The notes under the pieces are model-generated. The model was given only the letters and a program-made list of their open reading frames with translations, had not been told where the DNA came from and made no database searches. A stretch of DNA of 64,000 nt from Methanobacteriota archaeon (GTDB taxonomy: Archaea > Halobacteriota > Bog-38 > Methanoflorentales > Methanoflorentaceae), in contig OY970393.1 in the NCBI GenBank assembly GCA_963720465.1, forward strand, positions 800,001 to 864,000. Reading direction: 5' to 3'. Below, piece after piece: positions 23,556 through 24,111 of the stretch. Each line of letters starts with the position of its first letter. Position 1 is the stretch's first letter. Position numbers and translations under genes: made by a program.

Positions 23556-24111
23556 GTATCTCTTCTGCAACAGCAACATGACAAGGGTTATGACGCTAAA
23601 GGGGTATTTTGACGGTGGGGTTGCAGAGCAACATCCACAAAAACAAGAATTGAAACCGAGCGAGATAAAAAACATAAGGGTGGTTCGACAGCTGTGACGG
23701 AAGCAATAGATTGGTTTAAGGTTAGGATGTGGGAGCTAAAGAAGCTGCTTCGTGGTTCCGAATACAATACCGTGCACGACGAGTTTGGGGGCGAAGTTAT
23801 CGCTGACCTCACCGAATGGCTTAAGATGAAAGGAGCAGCGAAGTTCCATAATAACCTCAATCCCGTGGTTGCTATCACAAAGAACGACGATGTGATATTC
23901 CTCCAAGACTTCGAAGAAGCTCCTACAGACCGGAGCAAAGCGATTATTCACCTTGACGGGCTCTATGCGTTTATAAAAGAAAAGGCGTCCGAAGATAGCT
24001 AAATCCACAGTTGTGACGTTGCAAAGCAGCATCCACTGAAACTTCTATTGAAACTGCACTTAGATACAATAACGGCTGGAAAAATAAGTTGCACAGCAAT
24101 ATCCACTTTTT
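23556..24111 (+). CRISPR. Orphan CRISPR locus B: leader, repeat (23620-23656), 361-bp insert, repeat (24018-24054), 33-bp spacer, truncated repeat (24088-24107), T-tract
   Basis: GTTGCAGAGCAACATCCACAAAAACAAGAATTGAAAC; GTTGCAAAGCAGCATCCACTGAAACTTCTATTGAAAC; GTTGCACAGCAATATCCACT; 37-bp length and ATTGAAAC end typical of methanogen repeats. Confidence 0.82.
23694..24002 (+). CDS. Hypothetical 102-aa protein lying between two CRISPR repeats
   Basis: GTG start with AGGGTGG upstream; ORF fills most of the insert and stops 15 bp before the next repeat. Confidence 0.7.
   Translation: MTEAIDWFKVRMWELKKLLRGSEYNTVHDEFGGEVIADLTEWLKMKGAAKFHNNLNPVVAITKNDDVIFLQDFEEAPTDRSKAIIHLDGLYAFIKEKASEDS

Follow-up and report, generated by a model that had tools for sequence, protein, structure and literature searches.

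The window examined here (64,000 nt, C1:800001-864000) harbours, at a site designated locus B, a short CRISPR-like array in which a gene, orf102, stands in the place of the first spacer. By comparison with its relatives, orf102 is a genuine protein-coding gene under purifying selection. The locus as a whole is probably a vertically inherited relic array lacking cas genes, the leader and first repeat (R1) of which would now act as the promoter region and 5′ UTR of orf102. The features of this region, together with those of a second leader–repeat unit (locus A), are as follows, with positions counted from the first letter of the window.

19940-20048, + strand: locus A, a second leader copy (19940-20011) and a full repeat (20012-20048)
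20287-20463, + strand: orf58, a small conserved gene downstream of leader and repeat
23547-23619, + strand: leader-like stretch preceding R1, kept in all related loci
23620-23656, + strand: repeat 1 (R1), 37 nt, full length, ending in ATTGAAAC; Rfam CRISPR-DR7
23657-23693, + strand: putative 5′ UTR, 37 nt, with a Shine-Dalgarno-like AGGGTGG at 23677-23683
23694-24002, + strand: orf102, protein-coding, 102 aa, with a GTG start in this genome
24018-24054, + strand: repeat 2 (R2), full length, degenerate, with the ATTGAAAC end retained
24055-24087, + strand: spacer 2, 33 nt, a usual length for a spacer
24088-24106, + strand: truncated terminal repeat (R3′), the first 19 nt of the repeat alone
24107-24111, + strand: T5 run directly 3′ of R3′, as read in the sequence

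The sequence-only reading had described an uninterrupted ORF of 102 aa enclosed by two full-length CRISPR repeats, and both the coordinates and the repeats are borne out, with a 361-nt insert (23657-24017) flanked by repeats at 23620-23656 and 24018-24054. R1 scores 37.9 bits against the Rfam family CRISPR-DR7 and the locus A repeat 37.8 bits, each above the gathering score (GA 37). R2 is absent from the Rfam matches at E ≤ 1, and is identical to R1 at 29/37 positions and to the repeat of the genome's main array at 26/37. For R3′ the corresponding value against R1, over 37 nt, is 20/37, and its truncation recurs in relatives. Comparison of the repeat family across the window places copies at 20010-20048, 23618-23656 (90 % identical to the first) and 24016-24054 (77 %). 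When the 19-nt head of the repeat is considered, allowing up to three mismatches, four occurrences are found (20012, 23620, 24018 and 24088) against 0.49 expected, a count reached in 0/100 shuffles. The leader-like stretch of locus B is 78 % identical to that before locus A (19940-20012), and such a conserved segment of ~70-80 nt is common to loci A and B and to every relative (alignment A1); its repeat-proximal end resembles, by eye, the leader end of the main CRISPR array. As an array, locus B thus displays at least two direct repeats of a recognised CRISPR family and a leader ahead of the first of these, although its spacers are not of regular length: spacer 1 comprises 361 nt and contains a gene, whilst spacer 2 (33 nt) falls within the 33-39 nt range of the main-array spacers. 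No cas gene is adjacent to locus B. The T5 run at 24107-24111 is a possible archaeal termination signal. R3′ (24088-24106), the 33-nt spacer (24055-24087) and the leader-like stretch (23547-23619) had been passed over in the sequence-only reading.

An RBS-like AGGGTGG, a GTG start at 23694 and a stop at 24002 had also been reported within the insert, and all are present, the motif lying 10 nt upstream of the GTG and the TAA (24000-24002) ending 15 nt short of R2. The start codon is ATG in most relatives, and AAGGGTGGT of the 5′ UTR stretch is almost invariant across alignment A1. The frame was further said to stay open upstream through R1. This it does, as far as a TGA at 23610-23612; the extension is not, however, conserved as coding sequence, since the frame in which the repeat is read differs among relatives (P0004 versus P0007 and P0042). 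Taken alone, the ORF is weak evidence for a gene: a stop-free run of at least 102 codons arose in 327/5000 shuffles of the 361-nt insert when any frame was allowed, and in 65/5000 on the + strand. It is the comparative data on which orf102 is taken as a real gene. A total of 49 homologs display 69-98 % identity and are full length at ~100 aa, with the protein measuring 101-102 aa in 9/9 carrier genomes, and an HMM search unrestricted by length returned 13/13 clusters within 55-131 aa. Over 36 pairs the dN/dS ratio ranges from 0.06 to 0.35 with a mean of 0.147, and the first, second and third codon positions are variable at 17, 13 and 47 of 102 sites. Much longer homologs with a neutral dN/dS, which would have spoken against the sequence-only reading, were not what was found, since the homologs are no longer than orf102 and the ratio is 0.15. 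The notion that orf102 is open by chance, in an array insert that is never translated, accords with the 6.5 % of shuffled inserts that hold such a run in some frame, and with the two ORFs (116 and 98 aa) that overlap the gene on the antisense strand. It is nevertheless scarcely credible in view of the dN/dS ratio, the distribution of variable sites, the constant length in nine genomes and the conserved Shine-Dalgarno site and start codon; the sole copy with stop codons (G010:C91) is plainly degraded overall, its repeat included.

The encoded protein is small and acidic, and is predicted with confidence to adopt a small alpha/beta fold (AlphaFold2 model, pLDDT 86.8, pTM 0.80). Profile searches of Pfam, PHROG and PADLOC gave no match, and the model no fold match in PDB or BFVD, in agreement with the earlier description of a small orphan of no recognisable family. 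Rare distant relatives of ~100 aa (P0051-P0060; 31-41 % identity) occur in metagenomes with unknown hosts; a metagenome scan with their alignment recovered close orf102 loci only, and cluster look-ups gave no names for them. With regard to expression, one metatranscriptome run holds contigs of a relative, a single one of which spans the 3′ half of orf102 and the region downstream. Contigs from that run do not cover 23524-23802 of the window, and contigs cannot show RNA ends or RNA processing.

In terms of distribution, the orf102 profile matches 9/18 genomes of one genus and 0/6 of its sister genus, and is absent from the 377 other sampled genomes of the phylum (401 in all). In L009, L012, L013 and L014 the same TPR gene precedes the module by at most ~350 nt, and ferritin and TFE-alpha genes lie near the module in a relative, whilst no gene accompanies orf102 as a conserved neighbour across the nine loci. 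Searches of a viral contig collection with either of two profiles recovered no orf102 relatives. The best reading of these comparisons is that the orf102 unit is chromosomal and vertically inherited within one genus of peat methanogens that are uncultured. The mobile origin previously proposed is not upheld, given a chromosomal module with a usual TPR neighbour, no relatives amongst the viral contigs searched and detection of the family in one genus only. In the literature surveyed, which did not extend to the supplementary locus lists of Shmakov et al., no conserved protein gene between CRISPR repeats was found, and neither was any account of CRISPR in this lineage.

The sequence-only reading had asked whether the homologs also lie between repeats, and they do lie behind one: R1 precedes the start codon by 33-37 nt in 9/9 carrier genomes and 12/12 metagenome loci, and R1 together with the leader at this distance in 20/20 related loci examined. 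The spacing is tightly kept and corresponds to approximately one spacer length. Mean pairwise identity is 82 % for the leader-proximal 50 nt, 81 % for the 5′ half of R1 and 84 % for the UTR, values that lie close to the 82 % of third codon positions in orf102 (47/102 variable). Leader, R1 5′ half and UTR thus seem to be conserved about like synonymous sites, as might be expected of a relic. The 3′ half of R1 is higher, at 91 % (5/18 columns variable), which in this small sample could reflect selection on a Cas6 site and 5′ handle. Folding of the R1–UTR region yields weak structures only, and the R1 stem GTTGC-AGA-GCAAC is not retained in L009-L012. In two lineages the 8-nt tag has changed in its final base, giving ATTGAAAT in L013/G018 and ATTGAAAA in L021-L029.

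Beyond the gene, conservation is lower, with the post-stop stretch and R2 displaying 64-67 % mean pairwise identity. Amongst the nine carrier genomes, R2 is full length in four, replaced by a truncated repeat in three, and in two (G009 and G016) neither form was detected. Where R2 is full length, it departs from the consensus at seven positions in this genome versus one to three in G010, G018 and G023; in G018, a single-contig genome, R1 and R2 have two mismatches each. It is the loss or truncation of R2 in 5/9 genomes, the low identity of the post-stop and R2 stretches and the degraded repeat of the G010 pseudogene that lead us to regard the array as a relic.

Spacer 2 is common to the four genomes that retain R2, with a mean identity of 82 % over six pairs (A1). 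Its best match in this genome, at 25/33 positions, lies inside an ORF at C1:302279. This site was rejected as a target because 2/150 shuffled spacers match as well, and because the site is missing from G018, G010 and G023, all of which carry spacer 2. The mismatches in this alignment are six apart, an observation on which we do not rely. The viral contigs contain no exact match to the degenerate spacer-2 pattern. Self-targeting by main-array spacers was likewise set aside, as these have but one 18-nt match to their own genome, elsewhere than locus B.

A complete type I-B system with Cas6b is encoded in this genome, 1.26 Mb from locus B (cas operon at about C1:2072925-2081377). Its genes, ordered cas8b-cas7-cas5-cas3-cas6b-cas1...cas4, are followed by the main array, with 59 repeat copies at C1:2081485-2085915, the repeat of which is identical to R1 at 31/37 positions. 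Across the 24 genomes of the order, Cas6b_C was found in 1/24, Cas1 in 2/24 and the Cas6 family TIGR01877 in 0/24. Cas6b, Cas6 and Cas1 were not found in the eight other carrier genomes, most of which are incomplete MAGs, and the single-contig carrier G018 has no homologs of this genome's Cas6b or Cas7. Failure to assemble or to bin is frequent for cas loci and arrays. As most genomes scored as cas-less are incomplete MAGs (59-91 % complete), this label is firm for the single-contig genomes G018 and G002 only. A role that requires Cas proteins is disfavoured, since orf102 is under purifying selection where no cas genes were found.

These data bear directly on an account in which the gene would be coupled to Cas proteins, as a protein-level analogue of CreTA. 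Cas6b would cut R1, Cas5 and Cas7 would load on the 8-nt handle and the 37-nt, spacer-length RBS stretch that abuts the start codon, and the availability of Cascade would set orf102 translation, so that the protein, as sensor, safeguard or regulator, would be linked to the type I-B system. In both M. maripaludis and C. thermocellum, Cas6b yields the ATTGAAAC tag from 37-nt I-B repeats, and one repeat suffices for cleavage in vitro (Richter et al. 2012, PMC3479195). That R1 ends in this same tag, that a complete type I-B operon with Cas6b is present, that the R1 3′ half is better conserved (91 %) than synonymous-like sites (82 %), and that the gap from R1 to the start (33-37 nt) matches normal spacers (33-39 nt), all speak for such a scheme. 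We nevertheless consider it improbable, as Cas6b, Cas6 and Cas1 were not detected in 8/9 carrier genomes, and G018 maintains orf102 under purifying selection with neither Cas6b nor Cas7 homologs. Moreover, the last base of the tag has changed in the two lineages named above, this genome, despite its cas genes, has repeats no better preserved than those elsewhere (seven R2 mismatches versus one to three), and the cas operon is 1.26 Mb distant. Another account, put forward in the sequence-only reading, takes orf102 for a gene of mobile origin, with an anti-CRISPR, toxin or immunity function, that was caught in an array. A small, acidic orphan of no known family that adjoins CRISPR repeats, and has rare ~100-aa relatives in metagenomes of unknown host, would fit this description. 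It is, however, very improbable: there is no PADLOC or PHROG match, selection is purifying in genomes without detected cas genes, and the location is not that of a virus, plasmid or prophage, as shown by the absence of viral-contig relatives with either profile and by the chromosomal, syntenic context (TPR; ferritin and TFE-alpha). Nor is there, across the nine loci, the adjacent co-conserved partner gene that would be found in a toxin–antitoxin pair.

A further possibility concerns movement of the genes themselves, and draws on locus A and orf58. The region upstream of locus A corresponds, by eye, to that upstream of orf102 in L013 and L014, and a partial repeat lies 3′ of orf58 at about 20476-20493. 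There are 38 homologs of orf58, 35 of which are 58 or 63 aa, with other lengths of 48 (3), 84 and 101 aa. The gene occurs in 11/24 genomes of the order, several of which have two to three copies at different places. Most copies have the repeat 5′ half 3′ of the stop codon, and most have no repeat within 700 nt upstream. The CCAC-TTTTT-CATATTCG trailer of locus B is also found 3′ of orf58 in other genomes, and the two genes occur with two trailers in all four combinations: orf102 precedes the window's trailer (24087-24229) in this genome and L008, and the other trailer in L009-L014 and L021-L029; orf58 precedes the window's trailer in G007, G010 and G020 (by BLAST) and G017 (by alignment), and the other in G019 (48-nt match, 83 %, E 8.5e-6). 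In both cases the gene stops 15-17 nt short of a repeat or repeat 5′ half, and homology between genomes stops at the leader's upstream edge and just past the truncated repeat. Trailer swapping and the repeat-bounded orf58 offer hints, at the level of sequence comparison, of recombination at repeats. On this basis orf102 and orf58 might be cassettes, moved or exchanged between array remnants by recombination at their repeats, with leader and repeat as a portable expression platform. Such an account, which is compatible with a relic array, is also in keeping with the sister genus, where the homology of orthologous gene fronts breaks at or inside solitary repeats. We regard it as unlikely, given that it rests upon two gene types and two trailers, with the G019 junction being the short match above, that most orf58 copies have no nearby upstream repeat, and that neither a recombinase nor an excised form is known; homologous recombination of the ordinary kind, between dispersed repeats, would suffice without a dedicated system. 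Integron cassettes are small, promoterless-looking genes with a recurring boundary site and a common promoter region. The occurrence here of different genes before the same downstream flank is loosely analogous, whilst differing in that only two gene types are involved, an integrase and an attC-like site are lacking, and exchange is deduced from comparisons alone.

The solitary repeats of the sister genus lie 3-56 nt upstream of genes in G002, and the orthologous loci of G001 and G003 keep them partly or not at all; for this reason a 'repeat regulon' in that genus was rejected. One can also combine the foregoing proposals, such that leader–repeat units became gene-flanking elements, gene-sized 'spacers' were exchanged at repeats, mRNAs were, wherever Cas6b occurs, excised from the array transcript bearing crRNA-like ends, with translation linked to Cascade loading, and the many solitary repeats that stand before unrelated genes in the sister genus arose alike. 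We hold this joint version to be improbable.

Under the preferred explanation, a cas-less relic array whose leader and R1 now serve orf102, locus B and the type I-B array of this genome would descend from the same repeat family. The gene occupies the first-spacer position, with the protein held by purifying selection and the downstream repeats decaying or lost. Transcription may start from the former CRISPR leader, and R1 plus the 37-nt Shine-Dalgarno stretch, positioned before the start codon, would form the 5′ UTR of an mRNA that probably ends at the T-run after R3′. Translation of this selected coding sequence should give a soluble alpha/beta protein of ~100 aa, the cellular role of which would be independent of Cas proteins. 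Against this explanation stand the higher conservation of the R1 3′ half and the closely kept spacing between R1 and the start codon. In this genome, the sole one among the 24 of its order in which Cas6b was found, processing by that enzyme is plausible. Cuts 8 nt before the ends of R1 and R2 (23648/23649 and 24046/24047) would release a 398-nt mRNA with crRNA-like ends, as well as one ordinary crRNA bearing spacer 2. Such processing would resemble that described for Cas6b (PMC3479195) in the 37-nt repeat with its ATTGAAAC end and the presence of Cas6b in the genome, and would differ in that the putative substrate is an mRNA 5′ UTR and not pre-crRNA.

Several known arrangements invite comparison with locus B. 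Like orphan or degenerate arrays, it possesses DR7-family repeats, a leader and a truncated terminal repeat with no cas genes nearby, and persists in genomes without detectable cas. Unlike these, its first 'spacer' is a 361-nt insert with a selected protein-coding gene, and the unit is kept in at least nine species-level genomes, and is no strain-specific remnant. With CreTA/CreA and other cr-like regulatory mini-arrays of type I systems (Cheng et al. 2021, PMC8501985; PMC10120712), locus B shares a degenerate repeat pair, derived from type I-B and placed away from the main array, as well as the conservation of one spacer, spacer 2, from species to species. Whilst the survey of cr-like mini-arrays covers repeats 15-60 bp apart near cas loci only (Shmakov et al. 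2023, PMC10120712), those of locus B stand 361 bp apart around a protein gene, neither within nor next to the cas operon but 1.26 Mb from it. In addition, no conserved target of spacer 2 was found (25/33 at best, not conserved), and there is no adjacent RNA toxin. Viral mini-arrays and RNA anti-CRISPRs (Racrs) built from solitary repeats (PMC6858448, PMC10651486) resemble locus B in having solitary or paired repeats away from cas genes; they lie in viral genomes and are non-coding, whereas locus B is chromosomal, encloses a protein gene and has no viral relatives amongst the contigs searched.

The finding thus concerns a new, fold-orphan protein family, kept genus-long in a spacer's place behind a CRISPR leader and repeat, alongside a second small gene, orf58, with the same kind of repeat boundary. 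Orphan arrays are commonly regarded as inert debris. Locus B provides a natural test case for whether CRISPR leaders and repeats can be co-opted as promoter and 5′ UTR modules, and whether Cas6 acts on mRNAs. Should either the Cas6b or the cassette reading be true, the known repertoire of CRISPR repeats would be widened; should neither be so, locus B would stand as a well-documented curiosity, and orf102 would add a new family of small proteins, from a peat methanogen of environmental importance.

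The genome studied here (G000) comprises a single contig of 2.31 Mb (51.7% G+C), and at locus B it carries a short CRISPR array arranged as leader, repeat, gene-bearing insert, repeat, 33-nt spacer and truncated repeat. In the window (C1:800001-864000), locus B, locus A upstream of it and the gene preceding locus A comprise the following features:

19000-19758 (-): TPR-repeat gene
20012-20048: full-length repeat of locus A
20287-20463 (+): orf58, a conserved small gene in the locus A region (19940-20493)
23620-23656: R1, full-length repeat
23694-24002 (+): orf102, 102 aa, GTG start, inside a 361-nt insert
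24018-24054: R2, degenerate repeat
24055-24087: spacer 2
24088-24106: R3′, truncated third repeat

R1, R2 and the locus A copy form a single repeat family. The 19-nt repeat head occurs four times in the window, with R3′ as the fourth match, against 0.49 expected and with four copies reached in 0 of 100 shuffles. Both R1 (37.9 bits) and the locus A repeat (37.8 bits) exceed the GA of 37 for Rfam CRISPR-DR7, and R2, identical to R1 at 29 of 37 positions, is absent from the Rfam matches in the window. The 73 nt 5′ of R1 and of the locus A repeat are 78% identical. The enclosed ORF described in the sequence-only reading is confirmed, including its flanking repeats, its GTG start, the AGGGTGG lying 10 nt before it and a stop 15 nt 5′ of R2; that finding is real, and the locus is more structured than was then described.

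By its length alone, orf102 is only mildly unlikely to occur by chance, with an equally long stop-free run present in some frame of 6.5% of shuffled inserts. Its protein has 49 database homologs of 69-98% identity, and an HMM run against 1.84 billion representatives of any length returned 13 clusters (E ≤ 0.001), all of 55-131 aa. Amongst nine genomes the length is 101-102 aa, with ATG as the start in all except the window; mean pairwise dN/dS is 0.147 (range 0.06-0.35, 36 pairs), and variable sites at codon positions 1, 2 and 3 number 17, 13 and 47 of 102. We therefore consider orf102 to be a gene, and a fortuitous reading frame to be a negligible prospect; the much longer homologs and neutral dN/dS expected of an untranslated fragment were not encountered. 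The frame does stay open through R1, as noted when a captured fragment was suggested, and is stop-free upstream as far as 23613, but the extension is not coding, since relatives read this repeat in differing frames; versions of 125-135 aa are gene calls beginning within it. A few distant relatives from metagenomes (~100 aa, 31-41% identity) share with orf102 a motif around ITENDD..FL.DF.E.P.DR. One further protein, P0049 (116 aa, on a 666-nt contig), shares only the C-terminal ~40 residues (ENDDVVFLQDFEEAPTDRSKAIIHLDGLY...) and has an unrelated N-terminus; either the assembly is chimeric or the protein is a domain-swapped relative.

The order was sampled as 24 genomes from two genera. In the window's genus 9 of 18 genomes carry orf102, and in the sister genus 0 of 6 do; the eight related genome loci derive from MAGs of uncultured archaea from bog, fen and peat. 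A profile that included the distant relatives found no orf102 elsewhere in the phylum (401 sampled genomes), and no relative was found in a viral contig collection. An anti-CRISPR, toxin or mobile gene, as the sequence-only reading proposed, we now regard as very improbable.

The upstream repeat context of orf102 is completely conserved, with a full-length repeat ending 33-37 nt 5′ of the start codon in all nine carrier genomes and likewise at 12 of 12 metagenome loci (two sequence types, of three and nine loci). Alignment of nine loci reveals one kept block, consisting of a leader of ~80 nt, R1, a UTR with Shine-Dalgarno sequence, the gene, 15 nt and a repeat head, outside of which sequences are unrelated between genome groups. 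The downstream part of the array, by comparison of these loci, is decaying: full R2, spacer 2 and R3′ persist in four genomes (the window, L008, L013 and L014), a lone truncated repeat lies at L009-L011 and L021-L029, L012 retains only a degenerate remnant visible in alignment, and no downstream repeat is recognisable in L015 and L018-L020. In mean pairwise identity, the leader-proximal 50 nt (82%), the 5′ half of R1 (81%) and the UTR (84%) compare with 82% at third codon positions, whereas R2 and the stretch past the stop codon are at 64-67%. The R1 3′ half alone is set apart, at 91% with 5 of 18 columns variable, but the sites are too few for this to count.

With regard to Cas proteins, G000 harbours a type I-B system, with cas8b, cas7, cas5, cas3, Cas6b (Pfam Cas6b_N and Cas6b_C), cas1 and cas4 immediately 5′ of its one large array (59 repeat copies, C1:2081485-2085915, spacers of 33-39 nt). 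The repeat of this array matches R1 at 31 of 37 positions, and by eye its leader resembles those of the mini-arrays over the final ~17 nt. Inter-repeat pieces of 65, 83 and 124 nt indicate that some of its repeats are variants, and 18 nt of spacer number 52 recur exactly in the genome at C1:209544. Spacer 2 of locus B matches C1:302279-302311, within a methyltransferase-like ORF, at 25 of 33 nt on the same strand, with four of the eight mismatches spaced six apart; this level was reached by 2 of 150 shuffled spacers, and other genomes carrying spacer 2 have not kept the site.

The repeat ends in ATTGAAAC, which is described as the 8-nt tag left by Cas6b on type I-B crRNAs in M. maripaludis and C. 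thermocellum, one repeat being enough for cleavage in vitro (PMC3479195). Cas6b could therefore cut a locus B transcript, predicted in G000 to occur at 23648/23649 and 24046/24047, and such processing is possible in G000 only. The final base of the tag is altered in two lineages. Across the order, Cas6b_C is found in 1 of 24 genomes (G000), the general Cas6 model in none (positive controls matched), and Cas1 in two, G000 and one sister-genus genome. Absences in most other genomes are weak evidence because these are incomplete MAGs (59-91% complete); the strong case is G018, a single-contig carrier with nearly perfect R1, R2 and R3′, being one of five genomes tested in which no homologs of G000 Cas6b and Cas7 were found. 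The evidence thus says that the module does not depend on Cas proteins, and the conservation pattern of leader, R1 and UTR also points away from such dependence, leaving Cas-coupled control of orf102 an unlikely explanation.

Repeats beside genes also occur in the sister genus, where the single-contig genome G002 has ~17 dispersed solitary 37-nt CRISPR repeats (L030-L046) and no detected Cas1, Cas6, Cas6b or Cas7. Several precede real genes by 3-56 nt; these genes encode a methyltransferase (two paralogs), an HD-domain protein and membrane proteins. At the orthologous loci of G001 and G003 the repeats are incompletely kept, and the repeat is often where homology ends.

As to the history of the locus, a TPR-repeat gene lies on the opposite strand ≤ ~350 nt upstream of the module in L009, L012, L013 and L014, and the window's TPR gene is placed upstream of locus A. 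The window's TPR gene (102-nt tandem units, repeats at 19045-19551; TPR_1, E 3e-48) is divergent from the leader of locus A; in other genomes it is the neighbour conserved upstream of orf102. Read by eye, the region 5′ of the locus A leader is the counterpart of that 5′ of orf102 in L013 and L014. The window and L008 hence carry an insertion or duplication, which places orf58, a partial repeat, three genes and a second leader with repeat between the ancestral leader and orf102. Only in these two loci is orf102 adjoined by a DUF3303-like gene (24457-24768; 20.9 bits, just below the Pfam cut-off of 21.2) and a following thioredoxin-domain lipoprotein-like gene (24790-25251). Further along, a 21-nt unit (GAAGATTGAGGAGCTTGAGGTGA, 96-100% identical) stands three times in tandem at 27874-27938, where it overlaps ORF 27632-27943 at its 3′ end as well as an ORF on the other strand (27857-28291).

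Homologs of orf58 number 38, of which 35 are 58 or 63 aa, with others of 48 (3), 84 and 101 aa, and are present in 11 of the 24 genomes (up to three matches each). A leader with full repeat stands 5′ of orf58 in the window and G023 only (L080-L093 compared). In most copies a repeat head (the 5′ half) begins 17 nt past the stop codon, after which sequence varies between genomes: in G007, G010 and G020 (and G017 by alignment) this trailer is the one following R3′ in the window (24087-24229), and in G019 it is that following orf102 in L014. All four gene-by-trailer combinations hence exist, pointing to recombination at repeats. Exchange of cassettes through the repeats, as an account of how the unit arose and how it behaves, is compatible with our main reading, and strikes us as doubtful rather than improbable.

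One metatranscriptome run contains contigs of a relative, from which transcript ends and strand are not readable and in which DNA carry-over is possible. The larger (1245 nt, word depth ~500) covers 23823-24298 with 56 differences and four gaps, running from the 3′ half of orf102 across R2, spacer 2 and R3′ to reach the trailer, and the other, of 157 nt, covers 23979-24121. In the literature searched, no description of such an arrangement was found. A systematic survey of cr-like mini-arrays is described as considering repeats 15-60 bp apart (PMC10120712), a design that would exclude locus B, where 361 nt separate R1 from R2.

The best-supported reading is that locus B represents a vertically inherited orphan-array relic, in which leader and R1 now serve as promoter region and 5′ UTR of orf102, itself a small gene under selection that belongs to a new family.

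One genome holds orf102 twice, and its second copy (L059, G010:C91:9208-9465) is degraded by four stop codons and frameshifts. The leader and repeat upstream of that copy have degenerated to the same degree, which illustrates the decay of the module after orf102 ceases to be maintained.
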